Source of the DNA: a virus | Lineage: Duplodnaviria; Caudoviricetes | Length of the DNA stretch: 64,000 nt | Reading direction: 5' to 3' (one strand) | Virus record (IMG/VR): IMGVR_UViG_3300050514_000135 | Span: 33,102 to 97,101 of that record | Shown: positions 5,008 through 46,913 of the stretch, in pieces | How the letters are laid out: each line of letters starts with the position of its first letter | Numbering within the stretch: position 1 is the stretch's first letter | Notes under the pieces: generated by a model | What the model saw: only the letters and a program-made list of their open reading frames with translations | What the model was told of the DNA's origin: nothing | Databases searched by the model: none | Position numbers and translations under genes: made by a program

Positions 5008-5327
5008 CCGAGTACGTCTTCTTGATACTCGGCCTAGGCTTCGTCAGCTCTGTCATCGGGTCGCTCGTGCTGTTCGACCGACGAGAAGCTCGGCGAGAGG
5101 ACCAGTGGCGCGTTCAGCAGCGCGTGCAGATGGACGAGACGGTCGAGTGGATGCAAGCCCAGCAGAAACGTCGCAGAGCCACGCACGCCGAGGTTCGAGC
5201 ACTGAGGTGGCCCGCAGTCCGAGCGCTGTGCGAGCGCGAGACCGGGCACTCGCCGTGCGAGTGCGCGACGCGCTTCGCCGCGGGAGAGAACGTCTTCTGG
5301 GCTCGCGAGCGACGGAGGGACTCTTGA
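5004..5327 (+). CDS. Hypothetical membrane protein
   Basis: N-terminal TM (YVFLILGLGFVSSVIGSLVLF); GTGA overlap. Confidence 0.55.
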   Translation: MTEYVFLILGLGFVSSVIGSLVLFDRREARREDQWRVQQRVQMDETVEWMQAQQKRRRATHAEVRALRWPAVRALCERETGHSPCECATRFAAGENVFWARERRRDS

Positions 5328-6235
5328 CCTCGTTCTGGGACCAGTTCGTGCCCCGGTTCGAGGGCAAGCCGCGCATCGAGCTCCGCGACAACCCGCGCGT
5401 GAAGAAGTGGGTGCAGGTCCTGCTCGACCACCGCGAGAACCTGGAGAACGCCGCCGGCGGGAAGCTCGGCGCCGTGCTCGGCTGCGGGCACTGGGGCTGC
5501 GTCGTGGACATGGCCGACCCGTGGGTGCTGAAGCTCACGATCGACCCGACCGAGGCGCACATCTGGGCGAGGATCACGGAGCTCCAGGCCGACGAGGTCT
5601 ACGGGCAGGACGGCTTCACGCGACTCAAGCGCATCTTCGAGTTGAAGCCCGGCATCCGCTACGGCGGGCGCATGAAGCGCGTCTACGGCATCGTGCGCGA
5701 GAAGATCGCGCCGGCGCTGAGGTGGGACCGGCGCCAGAGCGCGGCGCCGACCGTGCACACGCTGCGCAGACTCGGCATCGAGGTGCCCGACAACTATGTC
5801 GCGAACTTCAACTACAAGGAGCTGAAGCAGCTAGACACCTCTTCGGCGGCTAAACCGCTCTGGGTGAAGTCGAACATCGACGAGTTCGCGAACGCGATGG
5901 AGGGCCTCGTCGAGTACAAGGGCATCGGCAGGCAGTGGTACGAGCGGCTGCACATGAGTCGTCGCGACGAGATACGCGATCGTCTGCAGAACGTCCTGAA
6001 TCGAAAGTTCGGCGGCCCCATCGGCGGGCCGCTCGGTGAGTCGCTGGGCATGCTGCTCGACAACGACCTCGTGCTGCGCGATACGCACCTCGGGAACGTG
6101 GGCTGGCGCGTGTTCGAGGAGGTCGACGGCGACGAGGCGCCTGACTCGCTCGTGATATTCGATCCAGGCCACACGCCGACCGAGAAGCGCGAGCTCCCGG
6201 TCGAGGAGTGGCAGCACTTCGCGGCGCTGGGTTAG
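5324..6235 (+). CDS. Atypical protein-kinase-like protein
   Basis: Gly loop LGCGHWGCV, VLKLT lysine, helix-C Glu (TEA), catalytic loop RDTHLGN, IFDPG; TTG start after GGAGGG. Confidence 0.7.
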   Translation: MTSFWDQFVPRFEGKPRIELRDNPRVKKWVQVLLDHRENLENAAGGKLGAVLGCGHWGCVVDMADPWVLKLTIDPTEAHIWARITELQADEVYGQDGFTRLKRIFELKPGIRYGGRMKRVYGIVREKIAPALRWDRRQSAAPTVHTLRRLGIEVPDNYVANFNYKELKQLDTSSAAKPLWVKSNIDEFANAMEGLVEYKGIGRQWYERLHMSRRDEIRDRLQNVLNRKFGGPIGGPLGESLGMLLDNDLVLRDTHLGNVGWRVFEEVDGDEAPDSLVIFDPGHTPTEKRELPVEEWQHFAALG

Positions 6236-6237
6236 CC

Positions 6238-6594
6238 ATGACGGCCCGCGCCGCCGGCGTACTGCTCCGGGCCCGCTCGACGGGCCGCTACCTGTTCCTG
6301 CGCGAGGCGGACGGCACCTGGAACGTGCCCGGGGGCGGGATCGAGCCCGGGGAGGACGCCGAGGACGCGGCGCTGCGCGAGCTCGTGGAGGAGACCGGGT
6401 TCTACGGCACGCTCCGGATGAGCCGCGCCGCCTCGCATATCGGCGCGTACCGCCTCTACGTCGGCGAGGTCGAGAAGGAGTTCAAGCCCGAGCTCAGCGA
6501 CGAGCACGAGGCGTACGCCTGGACCAGACTCTGCGACGTGCCGCGGCCGCACCACCGCGGGCTCGATCGCTTCATCTGGCAGGCGTGCAATTAG
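6238..6594 (+). CDS. Nudix hydrolase
   Basis: Nudix box GGGIEPGEDAEDAALRELVEETG. Confidence 0.92.
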   Translation: MTARAAGVLLRARSTGRYLFLREADGTWNVPGGGIEPGEDAEDAALRELVEETGFYGTLRMSRAASHIGAYRLYVGEVEKEFKPELSDEHEAYAWTRLCDVPRPHHRGLDRFIWQACN

Positions 6595-7154
6595 CCCGGG
6601 ATCTCGATGATAGACACTTGCACGCTGCCGGACGAGATCACGCACGAGCCCGTGACGTCGGTGACGCGAACGTGGACGACATCCCCGCCTGGCGGGACCG
6701 TGTAGATGCAGTCCACGAAGCCGTCGTTGCTCGAAGCGTCTGTGCTCGTAGCGGGACGCATCACACCCTTGATGGAGTCGGCCTGGGGGATCGGGGTGAG
6801 GTTGTTGTCCACCCACCTGAAGTCGATCGAGTCGCCGACACCACCGAACCCGTCCGCGTGGCCGTGGAAGATCAGGTGGTAGGTCTTGCCGACCGTCAAC
6901 TGGAACGACTCGTTGTCGGGCTGAGTGATCCCGCGCGCGGCGGTTGCCGTGTCGAAGTGGAAGTTAGTCACACCGCCGATGTTTTGAGGGACGGTGTTCT
7001 TCGCCTCGTAATATTGCGGAGAGTCAGCGCCGCTCGACGTGAGTCCGTCGATCACGGCGGCGAGGTTGAGCACGAACTGCCCGATCGGGCTGCTGAGGCC
7101 GAACTGCGAGGCGACCGCCATCGCTCGGCTGTGAAGTTTGCTGGCCATCGTCAT
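6591..7154 (-). CDS. Putative virion protein, beta-sandwich C-terminus; paralog of 10861..11415
   Basis: Shared N-terminus SKLHxxAMxVASQFGLxSPIGQ; beta-rich C1q/BclA-like C-terminus. Confidence 0.65.
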   Translation of the reverse strand: MTMASKLHSRAMAVASQFGLSSPIGQFVLNLAAVIDGLTSSGADSPQYYEAKNTVPQNIGGVTNFHFDTATAARGITQPDNESFQLTVGKTYHLIFHGHADGFGGVGDSIDFRWVDNNLTPIPQADSIKGVMRPATSTDASSNDGFVDCIYTVPPGGDVVHVRVTDVTGSCVISSGSVQVSIIEIPG

Positions 7155-7158
7155 CTCC

Positions 7159-7785
7159 TCAGATCATGAACAGGTTGATCGGGTGCCCCTGCAGCGTCGC
7201 CGAGCCGTACTTCTGGCAATAGTCGGCGTGCAGGTCGTCGCGCCGGACGGGCGCGCTCGCGTCGTTCGCGTAGTACCAGAAGCTGCCGTCCTGCAGCACG
7301 ACGACGACGGCCTGGCCCGACGACAGCGCGTCGAGCTGCGCTTGCATCGCGGGCGGGAGCATCGCCTTCAGCTGGTTCGGCATGGGTGGGGTGCCGCCCG
7401 GAAACGCGGTCGGGACCTGGACAGCGACCACACCCGCGGTGAAGCCCCACTGCGTGAGCTTGACCTGGTCCACGGTGCACACGGCGGCAGGTGGGAGAGG
7501 CGGGGGCGTGGCGGTCGTCGTCGTGGACGCGGTCTTGTCCTTGTTCAGGTACCAGATCGCGGCTGCGCCGAGAGCGAGCGCTCCGAGCACCCAAGGCGCG
7601 GCGCTCGGGTTCGCCTGGAGCTTGCCCTCACGCGCGAGCGCGGCTCGCTTCGCGGAGGGCGACATCTTGTGGTACCAGAGCGCGCCGCAGACCGCGCCCG
7701 GGTTCTGCGCCGACTGTGACGCGCCGCGCACGCAGTCGCGCATCCACTTCTTCGGCGGTCTTCGCGGGTTGGTTTGCATCTTCAT
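7159..7785 (-). CDS. Membrane protein (NP tag, TM, HPxxxF C-terminal tag)
   Basis: MQTNP and LQANP, TM WVLGALALGAAAIWYL, ends LQGHPINLFMI. Confidence 0.75.
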   Translation of the reverse strand: MKMQTNPRRPPKKWMRDCVRGASQSAQNPGAVCGALWYHKMSPSAKRAALAREGKLQANPSAAPWVLGALALGAAAIWYLNKDKTASTTTTATPPPLPPAAVCTVDQVKLTQWGFTAGVVAVQVPTAFPGGTPPMPNQLKAMLPPAMQAQLDALSSGQAVVVVLQDGSFWYYANDASAPVRRDDLHADYCQKYGSATLQGHPINLFMI

Positions 7786-8483
7786 GGTCCGGGTCCAGAG
7801 TAAAAGTTTGGCTGTCGATGGAGCGTCGCGATCGTGTTCGCCTGGTAGTGACAGTCGGCCGTGAGCAGGTAGACCGTGTCCCCGTTGTCCGGATTGACGG
7901 GGTTGTTGGTGCGCTGCAGCGAGAGGAGCAGGATGCCGTCGGGCTCGAAGTTCGTCGGGTCGAGGGGGACGGGGATCTCGCTCGTCATGTGCCGGAAAGC
8001 TGAGCCAGGCGGCGCCTCGGTGGTGAAGACGGTCGTGCCCGTGAGGTCGTAGTTCTGCTGGTTGAAACCCTTCGCGTACGTCCAGGTGTAGCTCCAGGTG
8101 ACCTCGTTCGTTTCCGTGCCGTCCGTGAGCCAGTGCGCGTGCAGGAAGACCGGCGAGTTGAGCGCGTAGTCGTGCTGGAAGTGGTAGACGATGTCGACGC
8201 TCCGGCCGAGCGCGAAAGCGTACGCGCGAAACGCGCTGCCGCCGATGCTCTGTCGCGTCGGGTCACTGATGTCCGTGCCGGGCGTGTAGATCTGCCCGAC
8301 CATGTCCCTCCACCCGCCGTTCTGCGACGTGTAGAAGTTGATGTTGCCGAGCACGTTCAGGAGGCTGAGCGTCGTCGCCGCCGTTTCTTTTAGTCCCCTG
8401 CGCCAATTGCCCATCGCAGAGTGAAGCGACTTCTCGCCGCCGGAAGCTGAAAGCAAACCTAGAAGTCGACGTGTTGCTGACAT
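7782..8483 (-). CDS. Putative virion/spike protein with an SLHS N-terminal tag
   Basis: LLGLLSASGGEKSLHSAMGNW leader followed by a beta-rich domain. Confidence 0.65.
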   Translation of the reverse strand: MSATRRLLGLLSASGGEKSLHSAMGNWRRGLKETAATTLSLLNVLGNINFYTSQNGGWRDMVGQIYTPGTDISDPTRQSIGGSAFRAYAFALGRSVDIVYHFQHDYALNSPVFLHAHWLTDGTETNEVTWSYTWTYAKGFNQQNYDLTGTTVFTTEAPPGSAFRHMTSEIPVPLDPTNFEPDGILLLSLQRTNNPVNPDNGDTVYLLTADCHYQANTIATLHRQPNFYSGPGP

Positions 8484-8486
8484 GGA

Positions 8487-9074
8487 TCACACCATGAAGA
8501 AGTCGGCGGGGTGTCCGTTGAGAGCTGGCGTGCCCTTGGTCACGCTCGCGCCGACGAACTTCGCCAGCGCGGCGTTCTCGGCGTCGTCCGAGACCCACTT
8601 CGTGCCGTTCCACTTGTAGAAGCCGCAATCGACGGTCGAGAACGTGTGCGCGTTCTTGTTCGAGACGTAGTCGGCCTTCGGAGCGGGCCACTGCGCAACC
8701 GGTTGGGTCTTGTCCGGCGGCACGTACAGCTTGTACGTCGTGGGCTTCGACTTGACGTACGTCGTGAGCATCGCGTCCGTGATCGGGCACGGGAGAGCGC
8801 TCGGCGTCTCGGCCTTCGCCTCGGTGTCGCGCGACATCCACCACCAGATCCCGGCCGCGAGGAGACCTCCGCCAATGATCCACGGCAGCGCGCTCGGGTT
8901 CTCCTGGAGAGACTTGTTGCCAGCGATCTCGTCCGCGTACCTCTCGGCGTCCGCGTATCGATTGAAGACGCGCAGCACTTGGTTGTGCCACATGACGAAG
9001 TACGCCTGGTTCACGTTCGAGTAACGGATCGTGATCCCGTTCCCGACCTGCACGACACTTTGACGCCTCGCCAT
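8487..9074 (-). CDS. Membrane protein (small domain, LQENP, TM, HPADFFMV)
   Basis: ATG at 9074 (MARRQSVV); LQENP, TM WIIGGGLLAAGIWWWM, ends GHPADFFMV. Confidence 0.75.
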   Translation of the reverse strand: MARRQSVVQVGNGITIRYSNVNQAYFVMWHNQVLRVFNRYADAERYADEIAGNKSLQENPSALPWIIGGGLLAAGIWWWMSRDTEAKAETPSALPCPITDAMLTTYVKSKPTTYKLYVPPDKTQPVAQWPAPKADYVSNKNAHTFSTVDCGFYKWNGTKWVSDDAENAALAKFVGASVTKGTPALNGHPADFFMV

Positions 9075-9076
9075 CG

Positions 9077-9502
9077 TTACACCATGAAGAAGTCGGCTGG
9101 GTGACGCGCACCGGCGAGCGACTTCACGTAAGCGCAGTACTGGTTCATCAGGTTCGGACTCTTGACCGGCGCGCTGTTCTTGTCCTTGTAGTACCAGAAC
9201 TCGCCGTTTCCGAGCACCAGCACGTACGGCCTGCCGAACGGGAGGTCGGCCGGCGCGAGCTTGGTGGTGACGAGGAACTCGTAGGTCGAGGGGAACGGCA
9301 GCGTGATGTTCGTGGTGTTGCCGGCGAGCTGCTTCTCGACGAGCCACGCCTCGAACTTCGTCTTGTCGATGGGTAGGCAGCTGCCAGGCAGGGGTTGGAT
9401 CGGCTCAGCGCTGGAGCTCGCGCCCTTGCTCGTTCCTGACAGCAGCCACCACGCGCCCAGTACGCCAGCGCCGACCGCCCACGGGACCCAGTTGGTCGCC
9501 AT
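9077..9502 (-). CDS. Membrane protein, paralog of 7159..7785
   Basis: ATG at 9502; N-terminal TM; VLVLGNGEFWYY..SAPV shared with 7159..7785; ends HPADFFMV. Confidence 0.75.
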   Translation of the reverse strand: MATNWVPWAVGAGVLGAWWLLSGTSKGASSSAEPIQPLPGSCLPIDKTKFEAWLVEKQLAGNTTNITLPFPSTYEFLVTTKLAPADLPFGRPYVLVLGNGEFWYYKDKNSAPVKSPNLMNQYCAYVKSLAGARHPADFFMV

Positions 9503-10857
9503 TACGGTTGGTTCACTCCCCAGCGCTCCTTGTTCGGAGAGCTGTAGGCCCAGATCCCGGTCTGTCGAAAAACTTTTTCGGCCTTGTCCACGGTGTGCTC
9601 CAGTGCCGTTCCCCGAGCATACCCCAGTTGGCCGTACTGCACCGTGCCCTCGCTGACCCTGTACCCATCTGGGTTGATTAGTTCCCAAGTGGCGTGCTTG
9701 TGGACACGAAGCGTGAACACGCGCCCCGGGTCGTCTGCAGAGCCGTACTTGATGAGCGCGGTCTTGTTCCCGTTCGTGAAGGTGACCGTGTACGCGAGCG
9801 GGTTCTGCTGCAGGGAGAGGCCGGACGCTGCCTTGGGCGCGCCGACGACGATGCCCCCGACCACGACCGCGGCGACGCCCGCGAGCGCGACAGCGCCCCA
9901 CGGGAAGCCTGAGCTCTCGGTCGATCCCAAGCCAGGACTTGGTGTCGCTGTCGAGATCCCCGAGCTCGGCAGCGGCGCCGCCTCGTTCGTGCTCATGTAG
10001 TCCGCCGGCAGGACCACGCCTTTGGCGCACGACGCGCCGAGCGTGAAGAAGTCAGCCGGGTGGGGGGCGCCCGCTATGAAACAGGACGCCCCCGGCGCTT
10101 TTGGGTCCATCGCGTTCCACCTCTCCGCGAGGACCGCCGCGAGCAGCACGGGCAGCATGCGCGAGCCCTGGTAGATGTGGTCAGCGTAGCCCTGCGGGTC
10201 GAGGTCGGTGCAGCCGACCATGATGAGTCCGCCGCGCCGGCGCTTCGCCTTCCACGGCGGGGCCGGGTAGTCGATCGAGTAAGGCGTCGTCGCCGGCGGC
10301 ACGCCCACGTGCACCGACGTCGCCGGCACGTTGATCTCGGGCACCGGTGTGTCGGCTGCATAGGCTTCGGTGTTGCTCGTGAGCTTCTCCCAGAGCCAGT
10401 TCGCGGTCTCGGTCGTGCTCGCGTAGGGCGGGACCACGCTCGAGTACGAGTCGAGGAACAGGCGCTCGTTGTTTGCGGCGAGCGCCGCGAAGTCGAGCCA
10501 CGGCTTCATCCCGGCCGGGTTCAAGACGTGCTTGACCTTGTCGAGGTAGCCGACGTGGATCCCGTCGACGGCGACGACCGCGTCGACGCGCCCGCCGTCG
10601 CTCGACGAGAGCACCTGCGCGACGCCCTGGCAGCTCGCGCTGAACCCGAGCAGCCCGACTCGCAGCGGCGTCACGCCCGGCGCGTACTTCGCGATCATCG
10701 CTCGCACGCCGCCCCCGTACGGCGCGAGCGACTGCGCCCACGAGTCGGGGTTCGGCAGGTTGACGAACTTCGTCGGGCGCTTGAAGGCGGACTTCACCTG
10801 GTTCACGGGTATGCCGCCGTGATTCCAGGCGATCAGGACGTCCGCCTCCTCGGCCAC
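9502..10857 (-). CDS. Membrane-anchored alpha/beta-hydrolase-fold protein with a C-terminal extra domain
   Basis: GFSAS nucleophile elbow, VAVDGIH, DHIYQ; internal HPADFF; TM then LQQNP and ~95 aa domain. Confidence 0.65.
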   Translation of the reverse strand: MAEEADVLIAWNHGGIPVNQVKSAFKRPTKFVNLPNPDSWAQSLAPYGGGVRAMIAKYAPGVTPLRVGLLGFSASCQGVAQVLSSSDGGRVDAVVAVDGIHVGYLDKVKHVLNPAGMKPWLDFAALAANNERLFLDSYSSVVPPYASTTETANWLWEKLTSNTEAYAADTPVPEINVPATSVHVGVPPATTPYSIDYPAPPWKAKRRRGGLIMVGCTDLDPQGYADHIYQGSRMLPVLLAAVLAERWNAMDPKAPGASCFIAGAPHPADFFTLGASCAKGVVLPADYMSTNEAAPLPSSGISTATPSPGLGSTESSGFPWGAVALAGVAAVVVGGIVVGAPKAASGLSLQQNPLAYTVTFTNGNKTALIKYGSADDPGRVFTLRVHKHATWELINPDGYRVSEGTVQYGQLGYARGTALEHTVDKAEKVFRQTGIWAYSSPNKERWGVNQP

Positions 10858-10860: not shown

Positions 10861-11415
10861 TCACACTTCCTGCACGAGCGCGTACGAGAGCCCGCCGAGC
10901 GCGTCGGCCGTGCCGGTGGCGCCGGTCACGCGGAGCTTCACCGTCTGGTTGACGCTGGGCGTGTGGAAGGTCTCGGCAGTCGGCTGGAAGTTCTCGTTGT
11001 TCGTGTTGGTGACCGGCGTGAGGAACGCGCCGTGATCGGCGTGCAGCACGGCGTTCGTGTTCGCGTCCACCCACTCGATCCCGATATTGGTCGTCTCGCC
11101 CGTGTAGTTCGCGAGCGTGAAGTGCGCGGTGAGCCGGTAGTTCTTGTTCCCCGTGAGAGTGAACACGCCGTTCAGCGGGTTGTACGGGATGTCGCCGTAA
11201 CCGGGCGTGTCCATCACGATGTCGGTGTTGGCGGCGAGCGACTGCCCACCACCGGCCGAGTATGAGGTCTGCACGTAGTCCTTGGCGACCGCCTGCGACG
11301 GGTGCGAGGACTGCTGCGAGACGCCGAGGATCCACTGCCCGATCGGGCTGCCGAGACCAAACTGCGAGGCGACCTGCATCGCCAGACCATGGAGTTTAGA
11401 ACGAGCCATGCTCAC
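10861..11415 (-). CDS. Putative virion protein, C1q/BclA-like beta domain; paralog of 6591..7154
   Basis: Shared N-terminal ~30 aa; NGVFTLTGNKNYRLTA beta pattern. Confidence 0.65.
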   Translation of the reverse strand: MSMARSKLHGLAMQVASQFGLGSPIGQWILGVSQQSSHPSQAVAKDYVQTSYSAGGGQSLAANTDIVMDTPGYGDIPYNPLNGVFTLTGNKNYRLTAHFTLANYTGETTNIGIEWVDANTNAVLHADHGAFLTPVTNTNNENFQPTAETFHTPSVNQTVKLRVTGATGTADALGGLSYALVQEV

Positions 11416-33896: not shown

Positions 33897-34136
33897 TCAT
33901 TCCTCTTGCTTTTTCGCGGGGATGCGGATCTGACCGGTGACGCGGCGGGCGCGCTCGAGGTCGTAGGCGAGGCCCTTGAGCTCCTCCTCGAACGGCGTGA
34001 TGGGTCCTGCCTGCCACGGTTTCTTCTCAGCCCACGCGACGACGGCGTCGACTATCGCGCCCTCGGCGCGTCGGATTAGCTCGGACTTTGGGTCGCTCAC
34101 GCGTAACAAGATAGGCGCCGCCGGCGAGCCCGGCAA
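33897..34136 (-). CDS. Hypothetical protein (start probably near 34100)
   Basis: Plausible helical ORF; overlaps the 3' end of the upstream gene. Confidence 0.4.
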   Translation of the reverse strand: MPGSPAAPILLRVSDPKSELIRRAEGAIVDAVVAWAEKKPWQAGPITPFEEELKGLAYDLERARRVTGQIRIPAKKQEE

Positions 34137-35474: not shown

Positions 35475-36472
35475 AGGAGGAAGTACCAGACTGCGGCAGC
35501 AACCGCGGCGAGGCCCCCGACAACGACGACCGGCGACGTCCCGGAACCGGAGGACGAGCTCGACCCGCCGAACAACTGGTCCGAGAGGTCGGGCACGCCC
35601 GGGACGAGGTTCCCCTTCGGCCACTTCACGGTCGCGTTCAGCTTGTCCATGTACGCCTTGGCGAGCGTCGTGGGAGCGTTGGTGGGGCAGCTGAGCTGCG
35701 GCTCGTTCGTCGGCGCGCCGCGGATGAAGTACTCGCAGTCCTTCTTCAGCTTGAACTTCTGGAACGCGATCTCGTCCTGCCCGACCGCGGACCAGTCGAT
35801 CGGCTCGCCCGGCGCGGCGACCGGGCCGATGTAGCCGTTGTAGTAGACCGCGTAGTTGTAGTCGGTGCAGGTGAACTTCGAGTTGACGACGCCGATGTTC
35901 TTCGCCGCGCCGCACTCCTTGATAGACGTCGGCGTGAGCGTCTGCTCGCCCGCGGCGTCGTAGCTCTCCTTCGACTCGAGGTACCGCACCTGCCTCGGTG
36001 CCCAGCGCGAGTTCACGGGCGCCGGCGGACAGCCCGCCGCGGTCAGCGAGGCGTCGCTCGCGAGTCCCTTCGTGATCGCGAGGTCGCGCATCGTGAGGTA
36101 GGCGCGCACCGAATAGATCGCCCGGGCCGAGACCTTGGCCTTCGCCCCGACCGAGGACATCGTGTCGACGACGAGGTCCTCCATCGTGGAGCCGTGCGCG
36201 ACCGGGATCTTGCTACCGATCCACTCGCCGATGATCCCACCGATGATCCCGCAACCGACCGCGACTGCGGGGCCGGCCGCCGCGCACAGTCCAGCACCGG
36301 CGATCGTGCCGCCGACCTTGCCGTACGCCTTGAGAGACTCCTCGTCGATCGCGCCGCGCCGCGCGATGACCTCCTTCGTGAGCGCGTTGTTCTCGAGCTT
36401 GTCGTAGCCCGTGTATGCGCCGACGCGCCCGAGCCAGAGCACGCGCCGCGGCCTCACCCACTCGACGTTCAT
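35471..36472 (-). CDS. Membrane protein with WLG leader and glycine-zipper
   Basis: MNVEWVRPRRVLWLG; GxxxG zipper; C-terminal TM. Confidence 0.7.
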   Translation of the reverse strand: MNVEWVRPRRVLWLGRVGAYTGYDKLENNALTKEVIARRGAIDEESLKAYGKVGGTIAGAGLCAAAGPAVAVGCGIIGGIIGEWIGSKIPVAHGSTMEDLVVDTMSSVGAKAKVSARAIYSVRAYLTMRDLAITKGLASDASLTAAGCPPAPVNSRWAPRQVRYLESKESYDAAGEQTLTPTSIKECGAAKNIGVVNSKFTCTDYNYAVYYNGYIGPVAAPGEPIDWSAVGQDEIAFQKFKLKKDCEYFIRGAPTNEPQLSCPTNAPTTLAKAYMDKLNATVKWPKGNLVPGVPDLSDQLFGGSSSSSGSGTSPVVVVGGLAAVAAAVWYFLL

Positions 36473-37044
36473 GTCACCCACCAAGCGACTCCGACGATCG
36501 CGGCGATCAAGAGCAGGGGAGCGATCGACTGCTTGGCGCCGGTCGCGATCGTCGGCGGATTGAGCTGCTCCTTGATAGACGCGGCCCAGGTCTTGTAGCC
36601 GTCACCGGTCGGGTGGATGCCGTCATCCTTGGCGACGGTCGGCTGGTCGATCGTGCGCGCGTTCGCGGCGATGACCGCCGCGATGAGCTCGGGGTACTCC
36701 CACGGGAGCTTTCCCGGCATGAGCCAGACGACCTCAGCGCCGGAGCCGCGGATCTTCACCGCGAGCTCGTTGACCTGCGCCTTCAGCGTCGCCGCGGGTA
36801 CCTTCCCCTTCGTGTCGTTGCTGCCCAGCGAGACCAGCACGCGCTTAGGGGTCAGCGCGAGCGCCGTCGCGAGGTCGGCGGACGCGAGCCACTGCGCGAC
36901 CGTCGTCCCGGTCTTGGCGAACGCCTGGAAGGGCTCCGGCGCCAGCGCCTCCTTCAAGGGCACGGCGAGGCCCACGGCGAGCGAGTCCCCGATGAGCACC
37001 GTGGGCTTGTCCCCGACGGCCCCGAGCCACTGCACGCGCGCCAT
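36469..37044 (-). CDS. Tail-anchored SGNH hydrolase with WLG leader
   Basis: MARVQWLG; IGDSLA, SLGSND, DGIHPT; C-terminal TM. Confidence 0.82.
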   Translation of the reverse strand: MARVQWLGAVGDKPTVLIGDSLAVGLAVPLKEALAPEPFQAFAKTGTTVAQWLASADLATALALTPKRVLVSLGSNDTKGKVPAATLKAQVNELAVKIRGSGAEVVWLMPGKLPWEYPELIAAVIAANARTIDQPTVAKDDGIHPTGDGYKTWAASIKEQLNPPTIATGAKQSIAPLLLIAAIVGVAWWVT

Positions 37045-37748
37045 CAGATCCACCCCAGGAGGTACGCCGCGCCGCCGACCGCGAAGGCACCGAGCGCGAG
37101 CGTGCCGAGTCCGGGTCCCGAGCTCGCGGACGAGCTCAGCGGGTTCGCTCCGAGCCAAGCGGCCGCGGCGTTGCTGTAGCCGAACGCGCGACCCGGGTAG
37201 TCGGCGGAGACGCCGCCGGTCGAGCAGTCCGCGATCACGTTCCACCGATTAGGCGCTGTGCACTTGCTGCTGGTGCCGCACTTCACGCTGCCGGCGTTGT
37301 ACGCGATCACGGTCTTGATCGGGTTGCCGCCGTACTTGGTCATGAGTTCCGACAGCAGCTTCGCGCCGAGGTCGACGTTCAGCGCCGGGTCACTGAGGAG
37401 CTCGTTGACGGACACCTTCCTCCCCGCCTGGTCGCTCGCGGTAGCGGGCAGGAGCCCCATGAGTCCGTAGCAGCACGACGAGTGCGCGTCTTGCTTCCCG
37501 CCGCTCTCGGTCGCCATCACGCCGTCGACGAACTGCGGCCAGAGCTTGTACTTGGCCGCCGCGGCGTCGACGATGGCGCGCCACTGCTTCACCTCCTCGG
37601 GGAGCTTCAGGGCCTTCGCGCCCTCGTTCTCGATCTCGATGAGGCCCTCTGGTGTCCAGCGAGCTCGCGGGCCGCTGCAGCCGGACTCGAACCACTGCGC
37701 CGGCGTCGAGACGGCGCCGAGTCCGAGCATGTAGTCGAGCGGGTGCAT
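37044..37748 (-). CDS. Tail-anchored SLT lytic transglycosylase with HPLDY tag
   Basis: MATESGG, GLMGL, NVDLGAKLL, AYNAG; N-terminal MHPLDYMLGLG; C-terminal TM. Confidence 0.88.
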   Translation of the reverse strand: MHPLDYMLGLGAVSTPAQWFESGCSGPRARWTPEGLIEIENEGAKALKLPEEVKQWRAIVDAAAAKYKLWPQFVDGVMATESGGKQDAHSSCCYGLMGLLPATASDQAGRKVSVNELLSDPALNVDLGAKLLSELMTKYGGNPIKTVIAYNAGSVKCGTSSKCTAPNRWNVIADCSTGGVSADYPGRAFGYSNAAAAWLGANPLSSSASSGPGLGTLALGAFAVGGAAYLLGWI

Positions 37749-37752: not shown

Positions 37753-38430
37753 TTATCGTTTGAACTTGAGAACCATGCCGGGCGACTGGTAGCGAGCCTT
37801 CGCTTTCGCTTCCTCGCGACTGTGCGCGCGGACGTAACCGTCGATCGCGCCGACGTCATCGTAGTAGCGGTAGAGCGGCGCCCCGACACCCCAGTATCGA
37901 CCGCGGCGGTCGTAGCCTCCTTGATTAAGAGGCACGCGTTCGAGGTAGATGTCGAACTGCGGCTCGCCAGCGTTCTCTTGCAACGCCGCGCCGCTCCCTC
38001 CGAGCAGGATGAGGAACAGGCCGACGACGAGCGCTCCGCCCACGACGTAGACCATGCTGTCGCCGGACTCGGAAGAAGAGGACGGCACCGCCCCCGGCTT
38101 AGCGGGAGGGGGGGTTCCGGGAGACGAGGACGGTGCCGAAGTCGGGGGCGCGAGCCAGCCAGGCGGCGGCTTCAACGGCCAGTCCCAGCCCGCCGGGTAG
38201 CCTGGCGGGCGCGGCGGAGGCCACGGTTGCCCCGTCAAGGACCAACCGAAGGGCGGGTCCTTCGGGAAGTCGCCGGTCGGCAACCACTGCATTCCCGTGA
38301 GGTCCCAGAACGGCGGCTTCGGTGGTGGCCACGGACCGGTCCAGCCGGGTGGGGCCGGAGCCGCGGGCAGAACTTGGCCTAGCGTGCCACGCACGCGCTC
38401 GTCGATCGGCTTGCTCCACTCCACCTTCAC
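37753..38430 (-). CDS. Pro/Trp-rich membrane protein with a C-terminal small domain
   Basis: MKVEWSKP..GTLGQ leader; PPGW repeats; TM; LQEN then GGYD..GRYWG.GAPLY domain. Confidence 0.7.
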   Translation of the reverse strand: MKVEWSKPIDERVRGTLGQVLPAAPAPPGWTGPWPPPKPPFWDLTGMQWLPTGDFPKDPPFGWSLTGQPWPPPRPPGYPAGWDWPLKPPPGWLAPPTSAPSSSPGTPPPAKPGAVPSSSSESGDSMVYVVGGALVVGLFLILLGGSGAALQENAGEPQFDIYLERVPLNQGGYDRRGRYWGVGAPLYRYYDDVGAIDGYVRAHSREEAKAKARYQSPGMVLKFKR

Positions 38431-38433: not shown

Positions 38434-39183
38434 TCAGCGCTTCCTGCGACGCTTGCGCGGCCTACCCATGCCGGCCGTCGCACCGACGCCGACGTAGAAG
38501 TTCTCCTGCAGCTTCGGGGCGCCCAAGAACAGGGCAGCGCCGATTCCGACCACGATGAGGCCGCCGATGACCAGCGGCAGCGTGTTCGACGACGTGTCCG
38601 TCGCCGGTGTCGTCGGCGCCTGGTTAGGTGTGACGCGCACGTCGGCCGGGTTGACTGGCGGCTGAGGTCCGCCGCACTGCGCGATGCAATTGACCAGGTT
38701 GAAGACGTAACCGGGCGAGTTCGGCGGCACGCCTGTCGCCTGGAGGCAAGTGTCGACGCACGCCTGCGAGCCGGCGGGAACCTGGGGCAGGCCGGGGATC
38801 TGCGGCGGTGTTCCGGGTAGCGGTGCTGAACCACCGAACGGTGGAAACTGCCCTGGCTGCACGAAGCCCTTCGCCCACGCCTCGAGCGCGGCGACCTGAC
38901 CGGTCGTCGGCGTGTCCGCCGGCAATTGCTTGAACGTCACGGGTTGCCCATTGAGCGCCGTCCAGTAATCGACGAAGGCGTCCATCATGGCTTGGTCGCG
39001 TGCGGACCAATAACCCGTCAGGTCCTGCGAAGTGCCGTAGTCGGTGACCGGCACGTTGCCGTACAGGTTCTTCCACGACAGCAAGAGAGCCTTCGCCTTG
39101 AGCTGCAGCGCCGGCACCTCGCCGAGTCGCGAGACCGCGCCGAGCCACGAGACTTTCTTCTTGGATACCCACTGAACTTGCAT
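38434..39183 (-). CDS. Tail-anchored membrane protein with WLG leader
   Basis: MQVQWVSKKKVSWLG..RLG; Cys hairpin; TM; LQEN; RPRKRRRKR tail. Confidence 0.75.
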   Translation of the reverse strand: MQVQWVSKKKVSWLGAVSRLGEVPALQLKAKALLLSWKNLYGNVPVTDYGTSQDLTGYWSARDQAMMDAFVDYWTALNGQPVTFKQLPADTPTTGQVAALEAWAKGFVQPGQFPPFGGSAPLPGTPPQIPGLPQVPAGSQACVDTCLQATGVPPNSPGYVFNLVNCIAQCGGPQPPVNPADVRVTPNQAPTTPATDTSSNTLPLVIGGLIVVGIGAALFLGAPKLQENFYVGVGATAGMGRPRKRRRKR

Positions 39184-39187: not shown

Positions 39188-40087
39188 TTACCTTCCGGTC
39201 ATGACCGTGGTCTGGGCGACGTAGCGCTGGCCGGTCTTCCAGACGTTCACTTCGGACCCGTCGATGTGGCGCTTGCCCACGTACATGTAGCGCGCGTTGG
39301 CGGGCGTGATCATGACAATGTCCCACGGCTCGCTGGAGCTGTTGCGCCAGTTCTTGCCGCGATAGGCGTAGGCGTACCCGGACTTCGGGTGCGGCGGGTT
39401 AGCCTGCAGCATCGGCGATGCCTTGCTCAGGAGCAGCGCACCGACGGCCAGCGCCGCGATCCCGCCGGCGATGTAGAGACCGGTGTTCGACGACGCGCTC
39501 TCCGCGGGCGGCGACGTGGGCGGGGGCGTCACCGGCGGCGGCGTCACGGGAGGAGGTGTTACCGGCGGTGGGATGATGACCGGAGGGACGATGATCGGCG
39601 GCGGTGCCTGTCCAGCACAGAGCGACAAGCACGTGGCGAGGTTCACCGGGTCCAAAGCGTACTTCTGCTGGCAGTTCTGCGCGCAGATCACCGGGTCAGG
39701 ACTCGGCCCGGGATTCGGGTTGATCCCCTTGCTGACGGCCCAGTTCTGCAGCGCCTGCAGGTGCGGCGCGTCGGGGGGAGCGGCGACGGTCCCGCCCTCG
39801 CCAGCGACGCCCGTCGCGAGGTGTGGCGGCTTGCCTCCGCTGTTCCACCAGACGCTGAACGACTCGAGCGTCGCGCCGTCGCGGATCTTGGTGAACGGTG
39901 GAAGGAAGTCCCCGGGCTTCGTCCCGTAGTCCTGGAACGCCGCCGACTGATTCCCCTCGCCCTGCGCCCACGCGGAGAGCAGGGTCTTGATCTGGACCAT
40001 CTCCGCCTCGGTCGCGCCGAGCGTGCCGGGCACGCGGCCGAGCCACTGCGTCCTCGGTTCTCGCTTCACCCACTGCACTTGCGTCAT
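39188..40087 (-). CDS. Membrane protein with WLG leader, paralog of 38434..39183
   Basis: MTQVQWVKREPRTQWLGRVPGTLG; DYGT..D shared; PPVTPP repeats; TM; LQANP plus small domain. Confidence 0.75.
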   Translation of the reverse strand: MTQVQWVKREPRTQWLGRVPGTLGATEAEMVQIKTLLSAWAQGEGNQSAAFQDYGTKPGDFLPPFTKIRDGATLESFSVWWNSGGKPPHLATGVAGEGGTVAAPPDAPHLQALQNWAVSKGINPNPGPSPDPVICAQNCQQKYALDPVNLATCLSLCAGQAPPPIIVPPVIIPPPVTPPPVTPPPVTPPPTSPPAESASSNTGLYIAGGIAALAVGALLLSKASPMLQANPPHPKSGYAYAYRGKNWRNSSSEPWDIVMITPANARYMYVGKRHIDGSEVNVWKTGQRYVAQTTVMTGR

Positions 40088-40944: not shown

Positions 40945-42147
40945 TCAGGCGGCGTACCGACCGCGCTTCTTGTGCCGGCGGCGCTTCGGGTTCTGCTGGA
41001 GACGACCCGCGGCGGACTTCGGCAGCTTCGGGGGCTTCCCGAAGAACGCGAACGCGCCGAGCGCGAGACCGGCGAGCGCGAGCGCTCCGACGCCGCCGAG
41101 GCCGGTCGACGTCGACGAGACGGCGGGGTTGGCGACGCAGTCACCCGTAGCGTTGCGGGTGTAGTTCGCCGGGCACTTGTCAACGCACTTGCCGTTCACG
41201 CAATCCTGCGTAGGCGAGCAGCCAGCGTTGTCGGTGCAACCGGGTGCGGGGCCGGGCGTGCCGGTCTTGCAGTCCGGATTGAACGCGCTCTTCGACTGGT
41301 CGATGCTCCCGCACTGGGCCGGGACGGCGACGGACCCGTCGAGGTAAGTCTGCACGTAGATCGCCGCCGCGCAGGTCGTGGGACCGAGCTTGCCGTCCGC
41401 GCCGATCGGGCAGATCTTCTGCGTCGCGAGCGCAGCGTTGATCTTGGCCTGCAGCGCACCGACGTTCGTCGGTGACCCGCCCTCGAGCGCCGCTTGCGCC
41501 AGGCACGTGGGGTCACAGGCGACGACGCAAGCGTCAAACGCCGCGGGGTTGTTTTGATTCTGCGCCGTGCACTTCTGCGCGCACATGTTGTAGCAAGACT
41601 TGTAGGTGATCGTATCGTGCAAGTCGCCTTGCCCGAGTCGACCGGTTCGTCCGATCCATTGCACGCGCCGCGCGCCGAAGATCGGGTGGAACGGGGGCAT
41701 CGGCCGAGCCTGATTCGTCCACGTGATCGTGGTGGTACGTCCAAAGGGCACGATGAACGGCGTCTCGACGAACGGGAAGATCGACTGCCGGGTGTAGAAC
41801 GGGATGGGCACCGTCGCCACGGGCTCGGGCGGCGGCGGGACCATCGCGCCGACCTGGTACGTGACGCCGCCGTCGTACGTGCAGTAGCTCGTGCCGGGGC
41901 CGTAGTACTGGTACGCCTTCTTGTAGACGCCGCACGTGACGTAGCTCGCGCCGTAGGTCTGGCCGAGACTCAGGAGCTGGTTCACGCCCTGCTGGTGAGT
42001 GATCCACCCGGGCGGCGTGTAGGCGTACACGACCGATCCGTTGCCGAACTTCTCGCGCACGGTGAACGTCCACGACTCGGCGTCGTACGGTTGACCGAGT
42101 CGGCCTTGCTTTCCGGCCATCGGTTTGGTCCAGTTCACGTGCTTCAT
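40945..42147 (-). CDS. Cys-rich tail-anchored protein with two leader copies and a PG-binding-like motif
   Basis: MKHVNWTKP..GRLGQ and internal RVQWIGRTGRLGQ; VGALQAKIN...ADGKLGPTT; EGF-like Cys; TM; LQQNPKRRRHKKR. Confidence 0.72.
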   Translation of the reverse strand: MKHVNWTKPMAGKQGRLGQPYDAESWTFTVREKFGNGSVVYAYTPPGWITHQQGVNQLLSLGQTYGASYVTCGVYKKAYQYYGPGTSYCTYDGGVTYQVGAMVPPPPEPVATVPIPFYTRQSIFPFVETPFIVPFGRTTTITWTNQARPMPPFHPIFGARRVQWIGRTGRLGQGDLHDTITYKSCYNMCAQKCTAQNQNNPAAFDACVVACDPTCLAQAALEGGSPTNVGALQAKINAALATQKICPIGADGKLGPTTCAAAIYVQTYLDGSVAVPAQCGSIDQSKSAFNPDCKTGTPGPAPGCTDNAGCSPTQDCVNGKCVDKCPANYTRNATGDCVANPAVSSTSTGLGGVGALALAGLALGAFAFFGKPPKLPKSAAGRLQQNPKRRRHKKRGRYAA

Positions 42148-43662: not shown

Positions 43663-43704
43663 TGTGACCTCGAATCCAAAAGAGAGTGAGTGAAGAGGCG
43701 GTGC

Positions 43705-43734: not shown

Positions 43735-43749
43735 TCGCCGTTAGTCCGA

Positions 43750-44961
43750 TCACTCGTCGGGGTTGACGGTCGCCTTGCGGTTCTCGAGCAGGATCTTGAG
43801 GTTCTCCTTGCCCTGCTTGGTGAGGCCCGAGAGGTGGGCCGTACCCTTGAGCGCGCTCTGCTGGAGCAGGCCCTGGATGTAGCTCGACTCGAGCAACATC
43901 TGGAACTGCAGCGAGTCCGGGTAGACGTAGTTCAGGTAGTCGATGCACGCGCTCGGGAAGAGCTCGACTCCGAACAGGCCCACGCCGAACGAGAAGCACC
44001 CGCCGGGGATGGTGTACGCCGACGAGTAGCCGACGCCGCACGCGGTGTCCTCGGTCAGGATGCCCGGCGCCGGAGACGGGATGGTCTCCAGGTCGAGCAC
44101 GCCCTCGCGACGCATCGCTTCGAGGAAGCAGCAGTCCTGCTCGACGCGCGACAGCCCGATGCGGATCGTGGTCGTCGGGACGTAGAGCAGCGGGCGCTGG
44201 AAGCAGTACATCTTGTGCCCGAGGCCGGTTCCGGTGAAGTGCCCGTAGGTGTTGCCGGCAGTCGGTGCACCGATGCACTCGGTGCCCGCGTCGCCGACGA
44301 CGACGTTCTGCGGGATGAAGAGCCGATCGTAGCCCTTGTCGTGCAACACGCTGTTCGTCGCGATGACGTACTTCTGCGCGGCCGCGAGCGAGTCGCCCGC
44401 ACCGCCGAAGACGTTGGGCTTCGGCCAGACGCCGATGTGGCTCGCGAGCTCGTCGACGACGACGATGCGGCGGCCCATGCGGATCTGCAGGCGATACGCC
44501 TGGACGAAGTTCTCGCCGAAGATCTGCCCGGGACCACCCCAGTCGAGCGCCGCATTGCGCGCGGCAGCGTCGCCGGCGAGTCCGCCGACAGGAACGCAAC
44601 CGTCGAAGCACGGCGTGGCCGAACCCGCGTCGGGCTCGGTGACCAGCGCGCCGGGGAGCGCGAACTGGCGACCCTCAGCGATGAAGGTCAAGAACGCGCC
44701 GAGGGCCAAGAACGGCGTCTCGACGCGCGCGCCGGTGAAGGCGCCGGTGATCTGACGACCGGGACAGGCTTCCGCCTCGGTGTCGACGTTGAAGAACTGG
44801 AGGCCCGCCTCGAACCGAGCGAACTCGGCCGGGGTGAGTGGCATCTTCAACTGGGTCTGGTCGCTGATGATCGCCGTGATGGCGGTCCACGGGAGGTTCA
44901 CTGCCTCGCCGATGCTCGAGACCTTCTTCCAGGCTTGTGCGTTGTTGGTGACGTTGGCCAT
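43750..44961 (-). CDS. Candidate major capsid protein (non-HK97, possibly jelly-roll)
   Basis: 403 aa, no TM, beta-rich; strong purine-rich RBS GGAAGGAAAAAGAGAG, A-rich upstream leader and downstream hairpin suggest high expression. Confidence 0.5.
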   Translation of the reverse strand: MANVTNNAQAWKKVSSIGEAVNLPWTAITAIISDQTQLKMPLTPAEFARFEAGLQFFNVDTEAEACPGRQITGAFTGARVETPFLALGAFLTFIAEGRQFALPGALVTEPDAGSATPCFDGCVPVGGLAGDAAARNAALDWGGPGQIFGENFVQAYRLQIRMGRRIVVVDELASHIGVWPKPNVFGGAGDSLAAAQKYVIATNSVLHDKGYDRLFIPQNVVVGDAGTECIGAPTAGNTYGHFTGTGLGHKMYCFQRPLLYVPTTTIRIGLSRVEQDCCFLEAMRREGVLDLETIPSPAPGILTEDTACGVGYSSAYTIPGGCFSFGVGLFGVELFPSACIDYLNYVYPDSLQFQMLLESSYIQGLLQQSALKGTAHLSGLTKQGKENLKILLENRKATVNPDE

Positions 44962-45053
44962 GTTCTCTCTTTTTCCTTCCGACCGACCGCGGGTCATCCG
45001 CTCCGGCCGCTCAAACAAACTTTGGTTTCGGGGTTAGTTTTTTCTGTCGTGGT

Positions 45054-46913
45054 TTACTGGCGATTCGCTCCGGAGAACTCCAGCGACCGGCGCGTCATGT
45101 CGTCCATGTTGCCGTTCGAGCGAGCTCCGGCGATGACCGCGGGCGGTGCCGCCTGCGGGACAGTCGGCTGCACGTCGGTGAACACCTCGACCGGCACGGG
45201 ACCGGCACCCGGCATGAGCGGCTGCACGCCCGAGTATCCGGGCGGAGGCAGCGCGTTCGTCACCGGGACGCCAGTCGGCGGTTGCTTCTCGATCACGAGG
45301 CACACTCCGTAGGGGAGCATGACCGCGTTGCCGGGTTGCCAGTACGAGCTCGGGTCCCCGCCGCCGTTCATGGCGCTGATGGCGTCGATGCTGACGCCTC
45401 CAGCAGCCGCGAGAGCGCTGAGGTCCTCGCCCGCCTGGACGACGTGACGACACTCGGTGTTGTTGTTGTACTTGGCGCAGTTCGGGCAGAGCGTCTCGCA
45501 GTTCGAGTAGCAGCCGTTGAAGCCACCGCACTCCGTGCAGTTGCCCAAGCGACCGGTGTTGACGAACGTGCGAGCTTGCTGACCCGGACGGCCGACGCCG
45601 TTCGCGTCGCCGAGCTGGTAGATCGATCCGCCACCGGCGCCCATCGGCGACTGGATGACGGGCGGAGTCTGCTGGCCCGGAGCGAGCTGCGGGATGAAGG
45701 GGCGCGTGGCGAAGAGCTTCGCGACGTTCTCCTGGATGTACGCCTGCTCCATCGGGTAGGCGCGGTTTCCGAAAGTGGCCTTGCCCGCGTCCGCCGCGTT
45801 GACCTTGAAGATCGCCGGGGCTGCGTACCAGTCCCAGAGCATCTTCAGGCCGTTCGCGCCGAAGCCGACGGCGACGCCGCCGAGCACCCACGGGATGAGC
45901 CCGCGGCCGCGCGTGAAGTACGTGCCGGCCATGCCAGCCGCGGCTCCACCGAGCTGCGTGGCGAGGCGCCAAGCGTCCGGCTTCATGCGGTAGGCTGCCG
46001 CCGCGTCCTTGCCGTAGTACGGGTTCGTCCCGTCCTTCGGCTTGCGCGTCGCGACGAGGCGGTCGGCGACGTCAGCGGCCGTGAGGCCGATGAACACCGC
46101 GATGGCCGCGACGCCGTACGCCCGGATCGAGCTCATGCTGAATGCTCCGTCGGCGTTCTCGTAGAGCACCGGAGCGTGACCCGACACGAGTCCGAGCCCG
46201 ATGGGGTTCTCCTGCATCATGCGCCGGCGACCCCCGCCCTTCCGCTTGTGCCGGCGGCGTCGAGTGACCTCGACGACCTGCACCTGGGCGGCCTTGGCCG
46301 CGGGGAGACGAACGATGTGAGTCTTGGCGACGGTCGAGCGACGGCTGCGACGACGCTTCTTCGCGTGGCTGCGCTTCTTGCCGTGACTGCGCCGTTTCGC
46401 CTTCTTCGTGTGCTTGCGCTTCCGGCGGCGTTTCGCGCCGCCCGCTCCCATAGCCATGGCCATGAGCGGAGTCATGCGACGAGACCGCTTAGCCCTGCGC
46501 TTGGCCTTCCGCTTGCCCTTCTTGCCCTTACGCTTGCGCTTCTTGGAGGGGTTTTCCGAAAGTGCCATTTGTTCTTGCTCCTCATTCTCCTCGTACCGGT
46601 GACCCCGGCCACGATTCTCTGAAAGTTTGGGGTTCGCGGTCAACTCTTGCCGGCGTGCCGGTCGTTTCTTCATCTTCGAGATCTTGCCGATGTTCGACGT
46701 GCCGTACTTGCTCTTGAGCGCCGAACGCATCTTCTTGAACGCCGCGATCTGCGCCGCTGAGCGCTTCTTCTTCCGGGGATTGTCCTTCAACACTTTGGCC
46801 ACCGGGTTCTCCTCAATCACAGGCGCGTGCGACGCACGCGGAGTTTTTTTCTTCAAGTAGTCGGCGAGACGTTTCTGAAAACGCAGCGCGGTCTTGGTCG
46901 GCTCGTGCATCAT
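45054..46913 (-). CDS. Arg/Lys-rich core-like membrane protein with NP repeats and a LysM domain
   Basis: Poly-basic tracts separated by EENP/KDNP/TANP/SENP/QENP; about 3 TMs; Cys cluster; LysM HVVQAGEDLSALA...VSIDAISAMN...QPGNAVMLP. Confidence 0.75.
   Translation of the reverse strand: MMHEPTKTALRFQKRLADYLKKKTPRASHAPVIEENPVAKVLKDNPRKKKRSAAQIAAFKKMRSALKSKYGTSNIGKISKMKKRPARRQELTANPKLSENRGRGHRYEENEEQEQMALSENPSKKRKRKGKKGKRKAKRRAKRSRRMTPLMAMAMGAGGAKRRRKRKHTKKAKRRSHGKKRSHAKKRRRSRRSTVAKTHIVRLPAAKAAQVQVVEVTRRRRHKRKGGGRRRMMQENPIGLGLVSGHAPVLYENADGAFSMSSIRAYGVAAIAVFIGLTAADVADRLVATRKPKDGTNPYYGKDAAAAYRMKPDAWRLATQLGGAAAGMAGTYFTRGRGLIPWVLGGVAVGFGANGLKMLWDWYAAPAIFKVNAADAGKATFGNRAYPMEQAYIQENVAKLFATRPFIPQLAPGQQTPPVIQSPMGAGGGSIYQLGDANGVGRPGQQARTFVNTGRLGNCTECGGFNGCYSNCETLCPNCAKYNNNTECRHVVQAGEDLSALAAAGGVSIDAISAMNGGGDPSSYWQPGNAVMLPYGVCLVIEKQPPTGVPVTNALPPPGYSGVQPLMPGAGPVPVEVFTDVQPTVPQAAPPAVIAGARSNGNMDDMTRRSLEFSGANRQ

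Follow-up and report, generated by a model that had tools for sequence, protein, structure and literature searches.

Why do the membrane proteins of one virus repeatedly carry the same short motif close to their membrane span? The question is raised by a stretch of 64,000 nucleotides (here called the window) that forms the last 64 kb of the 97,101-bp virus record IMGVR_UViG_3300050514_000135. Its structural region is long, is encoded on the minus strand and holds more than 20 proteins with predicted transmembrane segments (TMs). Anchor proteins of this region carry [LMIV]x[EAQTD]NP (the strict motif, defined on this window) on one side of the TM, called the NP side below, and WLG, VxW or HP tags on the other. 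The initial annotation proposed that the motif joins small cargo domains to anchors and marks the membrane face that looks toward the DNA. Our sequence comparisons suggest that the motif is likely a real, conserved signal for the loading or processing of virion proteins, and that cutting at it is likely.

TMs were called with a hydropathy script; that of 8487-9074 is clear by eye and falls slightly under the cut-off. In what follows L-, P- and G-numbered labels stand for the loci, proteins and genomes that were compared, L and P being from relatives and G000 being the genome of the window.

All the motif sites claimed at the outset were present, in the gene and on the side of the TM given for them. 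Structural genes held 14 strict motifs in 10,721 residues, against 2.0 in within-protein shuffles (maximum 9; none of 1000 reached 14), and replication and early genes held one in 15,149 residues (1.4 expected), the single match being a kinase. The proposed contrast with replication genes was therefore found. Since the motif had been defined on the window, an out-of-sample test was made on 258 dereplicated proteins of related viruses. There [EADSQ]N[PR] occurred 25 times within 30 residues after the last TM (3.3 expected; maximum 8 in 300), 20 times within 30 residues before it (4.0 expected) and 201 times overall (94 expected), so that the enrichment near TMs was borne out in relatives. The matches before the TM appear to be mostly core-protein and HP-type sites. 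The strict motif was found 41 times in these proteins (10.7 expected), only 3 of them after the TM (null mean 0.3, maximum 3), which indicates that the relatives use a broader consensus.

The shape of this consensus was obtained from a count made without any motif filter, on 33 leader-bearing anchors with a tail of at least 24 residues, taken from relatives and a few window proteins. In 31 of the 33 an Asn followed shortly after the TM; the residue next to this first Asn was Pro in 17 cases and Arg in 5, and the residue preceding it was Glu, Asp, Ser, Ala or Gln in 26. These counts identify the Asn as the fixed point and the Pro as merely preferred, the alternatives after Asn being Arg, Ala, Gln or Phe. 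Glu preceded the Asn in 11 of 31 junctions and in 18 of 86 core sites, where Ala, Asp, Ser and Gln were also common. Hence the original xxNP spelling holds for its Asn and for Pro as the commonest neighbour but not for an invariant Pro, and Phi-x-[EDAQS]-N-[P>R,A,Q,F,K] (Phi, hydrophobic residue) describes the sites better. The motif lay about 5-20 residues from the TM, mostly 8-17, was also found outside TM proteins, in soluble enzymes, and was maintained across viruses with capsid proteins only about 35% identical.

The motif had been selected after viewing the window, and the codons of LQE contain AGGAG; both facts would suit a chance pattern or a signal at the DNA level, either a recombination site or a Shine-Dalgarno-like AGGAG within Gln-Glu codons. 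The enrichment, however, reappeared out of sample, and synonymous codons at the motif sites matched the genome background, which places the signal at the protein level. Most of the listed window sites had no in-frame start codon just downstream, and many sites use Ala, Asp or Ser codons that hold no AGGAG. Chance or a DNA-level (Shine-Dalgarno) origin is largely refuted by the out-of-sample enrichment, the background-like codons and the scarcity of downstream starts at the listed window sites, and this explanation as a whole deserves hardly any credence. N-glycosylation of the motif was rejected on general knowledge, since Pro after Asn blocks the sequon. The LQQNP of the methyltransferase 23467-24105 was not conserved, its homolog having Asp instead of Asn.

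The side rule, by which the motif lies across the TM from the WLG/VxW or HP tag, held at all listed sites; the exceptions in the window were LGANP at 37140-37154, in the SLT protein, and CVANP in 40945-42147, both on the tag side. The NP side had been said to carry poly-Arg/Lys tails or domains of 60-95 residues. Both kinds were seen, with the range of the domains (cargos) in the window corrected to about 50-98 residues. Three anchors with neither cargo nor tail (9077-9502, 35471-36481 and 36469-37044) also had no motif.

The best sequence-level support for the side rule came from the cargo of 39188-40087. Three different anchors carry it, in one orientation or the other, and in each of them the motif bounds it and it lies on the NP side. 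In L002/L004 it follows the TM of another anchor, with the motif on both its sides and a second cargo behind it; in L023:10094-10759, the HP-type homolog of 8487-9074 in a close relative, it precedes the TM, again bounded by the motif, and replaces the 8487 cargo. The matches on the other anchors had E-values of 1.6e-18 and 6e-24.

Two further cargos were found on two anchors each. In L002 a different anchor bears the 37753 cargo, and a homolog of 37753-38430 (L013:16783-17247) has lost cargo and motif together. In L023:6056-7603, homologous to 9502-10857, a DUF5661 cargo is inserted directly after the motif, and members of the 47452 family have zero, one or two cargos, each opened by the motif. 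Both cargo-flanking motifs of 7159-7785 are retained in the homologs L023:8225-8932 and L038:5402-6007, and homologs of 40945-42147 keep the motif as LQENR, LQENK or PADNP; it is absent from two homologs of 34027-34851. With motif-bounded cargos swapping between anchors, the proposal that the motif joins cargos to anchors was upheld, and the motif is very probably a joint for cargo on the inner face.

The initial annotation had also advised a search for the cargo domains as stand-alone open reading frames (ORFs), and the 37753 cargo was found in this form in gp49 of Achromobacter phage AchV4 and in P0165. It occurs in a terminal-repeat gene of Caulobacter phage CcrPW as well; the AchV4 and CcrPW homologs have no Asn-Pro at the cargo boundary. 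In cultured phages, tblastn gave no match for the cargos of 39188 and 9502 or for one L001 cargo, and PHROGs gave no name for any window cargo.

Domain shuffling by recombination at a shared linker would itself spread the motif, and Asn-Pro is a common cap or turn pair; the motif might then be a structural linker, an Asn-Pro turn or helix cap copied along with the cassettes and read by nothing. A mere linker would not readily explain its survival between such distant viruses, in unstructured Arg/Ala repeats and at free termini, nor the tolerance of Arg, Ala or Gln at position +1 while E/D-N stays. The missing Asn-Pro in the stand-alone homologs of tailed phages also counts against this explanation, which we regard as improbable.

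The motif was not confined to the surroundings of TMs. Beyond the sites first listed, eight copies, five of them strict and three looser, lie in the N-terminus of the core protein 45054-46913. Of the 9 Asn within residues 1-262, 8 belong to a motif copy, and Lys and Arg together account for 84 of the first 236 residues. Core homologs carry from 2 to about 15 copies, often about 10 residues apart and alternating with Arg blocks, and the copies repeat more than 200 residues away from any TM. Full-length forms of the family contain 26-38% Lys/Arg, and N236-P237 is nearly invariant. By composition the N-terminal region appears protamine-like, and the three hydrophobic segments would place the Cys cluster and the LysM-like domain on the opposite face.

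The LRDNP near the N-terminus of the soluble kinase-like protein 5324-6235, which had no Pfam match, proved to be real: 54 of 83 homologs carry a tag at one end, 30 at the N end (often doubled) and 26 at the C end, only 2 having both. The motif is concentrated in the flanks of these homologs, at about 20 per 1000 residues against 1.7 within the core; in soluble kinases the tags are 2-15 residues away from the termini. A terminal tag is also present in three further soluble ORFs (L018:18125, L032:6163 and L032:13670). The motif or a close variant also separates the kinase from ART-PolyVal (P0219, P0230, P0209), GNAT (P0223) and DUF5661 (P0214) domains. Protein P0187 matches the full side rule, with the order tag, kinase, tag, TM, GDSL esterase and C-terminal HP tag. 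Two kinase loci sit among homologs of the window anchors, or similar SLT/GDSL/M15 genes. The window itself has two GDSL/SGNH esterases, one soluble and on the plus strand (30057-30611) and one WLG-tagged and anchored (36469-37044); in P0187 this domain type sits on an HP-type anchor.

Where the tag sits only a few residues inside the terminus of a soluble enzyme, a cut would free nothing. A second role is therefore probable for the motif, that of directing proteins to the particle; the tag would then address as well as separate. Such tags would equally suit a signal for docking only, bound uncut by an inner scaffold (e.g. the 180-residue protein 46910-47452 or the core protein), with cargos acting while tethered to the viral membrane after its merger with the host membrane. 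A single tag at either end would be enough for docking; in addition, the motif terminates an anchor that has no cargo, and the sole clear protease lies on the opposite face. The motifs between tandem cargos and on both flanks of single cargos, and the evenly spaced core copies, up to about 15 between basic blocks, form instead the pattern of processing sites, and docking alone seems unlikely to us.

Which membrane face does the NP side occupy? The domains found on it were kinase, ART-PolyVal, GNAT and poly-Arg, and those on the tag side were SLT, LysM, M15 peptidase, GDSL esterase and Cys-rich modules; Cys made up 2.5% of the tag side and 0.7% of the NP side of WLG-type proteins. These functions fit an NP side that acts on DNA or in the cytosol and an outer WLG/HP side. 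The flanking Lys/Arg bias of WLG-type proteins (97 vs 45, p = 2e-5) also favours a cytoplasmic NP side, whereas that of HP-type proteins points the opposite way (10 vs 16, n = 6, not significant). The assignment of NP to the DNA or cytoplasmic face was accordingly supported by domain functions and by the WLG-type charges but not by the HP-type charges, and the positive-inside rule gave no single uniform topology. Reading by eye, we saw no signal peptides on the large WLG ectodomains. The mixed charge bias and the lack of visible signal peptides mean that host insertion rules fail to explain the arrangement. Either the tags would direct export themselves, or the membrane would be built as an open sheet, as it is in poxviruses.

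The motif could also be a topogenic or sorting signal that tells a viral insertase which side of the TM stays, with no release of cargo. Its fixed distance from the TM would fit this role, as would the missing signal peptides and a charge bias so inconsistent that orientation may follow non-host rules. But such a signal should not be missing from the three anchors without cargo or tail, should not be found on soluble proteins and would have no task at core copies so far from any TM; we give it little weight.

If the motif is cut, a protease has to work on the NP face. The clearest protease of the locus, the transglutaminase-like 48318-49238 (TM-score 0.73 for its model against viral transglutaminase-like models), was ruled out as the cutter by topology: in L001:3597-5174 the order is protease, WLG, TM, LLDNR, cargo, which puts it on the WLG side. 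It more likely reads LG-type tags instead. In L002/L004:4686-5831 an intein-like (Hint) insertion lies exactly at the catalytic Cys of this protease. In many homologs of the capsid candidate (P0001-P0079), WLG-like sequences lie close to both termini, LG or IG at the N-terminal end and LAG, LGG or LG at the C-terminal end; these sites are possible targets of the transglutaminase-like protease.

On the NP side the candidate is the HExxH protein 4074-4514, which is 51-79% identical in 4 related genomes and lies near NUDIX/kinase genes. One homolog gave a weak match to Pfam M78 (E = 0.15). Clear HExxH zincin-like motifs were found in stand-alone ORFs and none in cargo or anchor chains, the single anchor match being a DUF5661 motif. 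The identification of 4074-4514 as the cutter is doubtful. The 180-residue protein 46910-47452, present in 9 of 9 loci aligned, gave no fold or known-protease match (best Z 3.8; Foldseek E above 0.3; Atlas TM-score at most 0.33) and is a possible tag reader.

Along the sequences the motif bounds cargos, separates tandem cargos, punctuates the core region and marks the ends of soluble enzymes. The reading that we prefer, with a probability of roughly 55%, is that Phi-x-[EDAQS]-N-[P/R] serves throughout the lineage both as an address for the compartment facing the genome and as a processing signal, a load-and-cut device like the capsid targeting sequence (CTS) of phage T4. During assembly, tagged segments would gather with the DNA on one membrane face. 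A scan for Walker A motifs, on home-made gene calls of the whole genome G000 and of G002:C433, revealed no evident FtsK-HerA packaging ATPase: the real motifs of G000 were only in the primase-helicase and the UvrD helicase, both replication proteins, and the called genes in the outer parts of G002:C433 gave a single chance-like match. Without an evident packaging ATPase, the membrane probably closes around the nucleoprotein core. A protease on the NP face would then cut at Asn, a step that we propose with less assurance; the cut would yield basic peptides of about 10 residues from the core protein and would also detach the cargos. The latter would accompany the DNA into the next host and serve there as early effectors. 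The cutter might, speculatively, be the HExxH protein 4074-4514 or the 180-residue protein 46910-47452. That a cut takes place in the particle or upon entry is fairly probable.

A further-reaching version, which we put forward tentatively, is a peptide code that distinguishes the two faces and employs a protease on each: LG/HP tags and the transglutaminase-like enzyme outside, the Asn tag and an Asn-specific, possibly HExxH, peptidase on the genome side, in a motorless membrane particle that would load any domain bearing the five-residue tag.

Several observations weigh against a load-and-cut signal. No protease could be linked to the motif, and 4074-4514 itself matched no family or structure significantly. 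In a few proteins the motif closes the chain, so that a cut would release nothing (L034:19368-19739); such motif-terminated proteins favour docking or a vestige. The positions flanking the Asn are loose, Phi being often Ala, Arg or Pro in relatives and +1 being variable. In the kinase homologs P0222, P0224, P0226, P0232, P0236 and P0242, Glu replaces the Asn of the C-terminal tag, which suggests a sub-lineage with relaxed or changed specificity; moreover, the tag counts of the kinase homologs are not phylogenetically independent. To these is added the opposite charge bias of the HP-type proteins. Finally, if the first hydrophobic segment of the 47452-48321 family spans the membrane, WLG and NP share a face.

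In 47452-48321 and its homologs L001:6362, L004:5988, L007:5157 and L034:11898, a conserved G-x-[VLI]-G stands directly before a Gly-rich hydrophobic segment of about 28 residues, which is followed by a helical region and then the C-terminal TM. This arrangement is reminiscent of a fusion protein in which cleavage at an LG-type site uncovers the fusion peptide.

What kind of virus carries this system? The genome is probably circular and about 93 kb long, since genes at the two ends of the record are repeated across about 3.7 kb; both G000 and G002:C433 appear circular. The G+C content is about 66%, and the gene content includes PolA-, primase- and helicase-like genes, an integrase and a sugar-modification block. 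No head-tail families were among the Pfam matches listed (25 of 40 families) in a whole-genome scan. The virus is probably tailless and membrane-containing, with a bacterial host; an internal lipid membrane is probable given the many TM proteins of the structural block. The DNA of the window occurs in rhizosphere metagenomes, and no RNA datasets with it were listed.

The probable major capsid protein, 43750-44961, was assigned from its structure model (pLDDT, the predicted local distance difference test score, 73). This gave a weak match to SPV1 (Z 5.9, root-mean-square deviation 3.7, 138 residues aligned), with Z 5.3 for HCIV-1 and 5.1 for HHIV-2, the viral matches being tied with unrelated jelly-rolls. 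Foldseek matches to papillomavirus L1 were taken as noise (TM-score about 0.1). Clustering at 50% gave 146 relatives of the capsid candidate, whose surrounding gene order is maintained in the related loci retrieved. The features of the window are collected in Table 1.

Table 1. Location and organisation of the proteins discussed in the text (window positions).
Feature	Position	Strand	Basis or remark
Soluble HExxH (HENLHH and downstream Glu) zinc-metallopeptidase-like protein	4074-4514	+	candidate NP-side cutter
Soluble kinase-like protein, N-terminal LRDNP at 5381-5395	5324-6235	+	Gly-loop, later DPGH motif
HP-type anchor: MQTNP (7765-7779), 49-residue cargo, LQANP (7606-7620), TM, ectodomain, C-terminal HP tag	7159-7785	-	sequence
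HP-type anchor: 55-residue cargo, LQENP (8895-8909), TM, ectodomain, HP tag	8487-9074	-	sequence
HP-type anchor with empty slot: no cargo, no NP motif	9077-9502	-	sequence
Hydrolase-like ectodomain, internal HP tag, TM, LQQNP (9799-9813), 98-residue cargo	9502-10857	-	sequence
Ectodomain, TM, VRANP (34072-34086), poly-Arg tail	34027-34851	-	sequence
VxW leader, Pro-rich region, TM, LQENA (37969-37983), 71-residue cargo	37753-38430	-	sequence
WLG leader, ectodomain, TM, LQENF (38497-38511), basic tail	38434-39183	-	sequence
WLG leader, ectodomain, TM, LQANP (39395-39409), 68-residue cargo	39188-40087	-	sequence
VxW leader, Cys-rich ectodomain, TM, LQQNP (40987-41001), poly-Arg/Lys tail	40945-42147	-	sequence
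Probable major capsid protein, single jelly-roll with large insertion	43750-44961	-	structure model, relatives
Core/anchor protein: Arg/Lys-rich N-terminus, 8 motif copies (46152-46817), three hydrophobic segments, Cys cluster, LysM-like domain	45054-46913	-	sequence
Conserved soluble 180-residue beta protein	46910-47452	-	just upstream of core gene
Conserved 289-residue anchor; cargos of homologs NP-delimited, after C-terminal TM	47452-48321	-	sequence, homologs
Transglutaminase-like Cys protease, then WLG tag and TM	48318-49238	-	C117/H149/D164 invariant

Other features of the group were noted. The locus L034 (contig DASRAP010000433.1), a relative of 73.7 kb, is binned in a Gemmatimonadaceae metagenome-assembled genome, and its contig ends overlap in sequence; it looks like a whole viral contig, possibly mis-binned, and may be a free virus and not a provirus. 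This contig (G002:C433) has the same structural module as the window and encodes, at L034:4111-5640, a protein with the HxH motif typical of rolling-circle Rep; no PolA or primase was seen in it, both being present in the genome of the window. Replication modules seem to be exchanged. The whole-genome Pfam scan also gave matches to Tad2-like (anti-Thoeris) and GroES (Cpn10) families, by sequence apparently window 27384-27635 and 27840-28130. An N-terminal helix motif, S-L-x-S-x-x-G-x-W/F, is common to spike-like and small soluble proteins (6591-7154, 7782-8483, 10861-11415, 17160-18596 and 30786-31079) and occurs in the relatives L018:16767, L023:7603 and L038:6007.

A tag rule of this kind would predict, for a large uncultured group (the 146 capsid relatives), which proteins of unknown role are delivered effectors and on which membrane face each domain lies, and it allows a direct test without culturing the virus. 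An enzyme that cut the motif at Asn-Pro would be unusual in its specificity, and the system bears on protein sorting across the membrane in viruses that have no packaging ATPase. A literature search that covered few subscription journals turned up no account of the virus group, none of an Asn-Pro signal in virions and none of a loading or processing signal for a tailless membrane-containing bacterial virus; such signals are known for the tailed phages T4 and phiKZ. New here are the cargo test in both orientations, the kinase family that bears the tag at one end or the other, and the assignment of the two candidate proteases to opposite faces.

The closest parallel is the CTS of T4, which is carried by the internal proteins IPI-III and by Alt, loads unrelated effectors and is cut by the prohead protease gp21; phiKZ gp175 acts likewise, and phiKZ propeptides have redundant cleavage sites (PMC9026906). 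Shared features would be a short loading peptide that is also a processing site, a cargo that varies among relatives, and redundant sites in propeptides, here in basic propeptide-like regions. The terminal peptide on soluble, variable proteins also has its counterpart in sequence, in the kinase family and the three other soluble ORFs. T4 cuts after the invariant Glu of [LIF]-x-E, whereas the fixed residue here is Asn; the present tag can stand at either end of a protein or beside a membrane anchor, and a second set of tags marks the other face. No tailed-phage head genes were seen among the Pfam matches listed, and the capsid candidate models as a jelly-roll.

Polyvalent proteins of phages and conjugative elements have zincin HExxH peptidases as their predicted processing enzymes (Iyer et al. 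2017, PMC5512222). The tandem cargos and the kinase fusions resemble them in lining up several conflict domains (ART-PolyVal, kinase, GNAT) in one chain, in combinations that differ like a mosaic from relative to relative, and 4074-4514 has the HExxH-plus-Glu pattern of their peptidases. Here, in contrast, small TM anchors of a tailless virus bear the cassettes, a conserved motif marks the junctions, and the HExxH protein has a gene of its own; in polyvalent proteins a zincin metallopeptidase within the polyprotein is common, though not universal.

Adenovirus pVII and mu are cut by AVP, and vaccinia core and membrane proteins by I7, at Gly-based sites. The Arg-rich core precursor with repeated sites and a virus-encoded Cys protease beside the capsid genes are common to these systems and to the window; the Gly-based sites, however, look like the WLG/LAG tags and unlike NP, the virus of the window probably infects bacteria, and its Cys protease is of the transglutaminase-like kind, not of clan CE. 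The asparagine peptide lyases YscU/FlhB (NPTH) and reovirus mu1 (Asn-Pro) cut themselves inside a folded domain. The likeness would lie in an Asn-Pro scissile bond, Asn being fixed and Pro commonest here, and in the release of a peptide from a membrane-linked protein. The present sites differ in lying in variable low-complexity linkers between unrelated domains, which makes self-cleavage unlikely.

SPV1, of the Portogloboviridae, likewise has no evident packaging ATPase (PMC8812541). Its single jelly-roll capsid protein and those of the Halopanivirales, which do have an ATPase, are the nearest likeness for the capsid candidate, a weak one at Z 5.9; particles of both groups have an internal membrane. 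From both groups the virus of the window differs by its circle of about 93 kb with PolA and integrase, its more than 20 TM proteins and its probably bacterial host.

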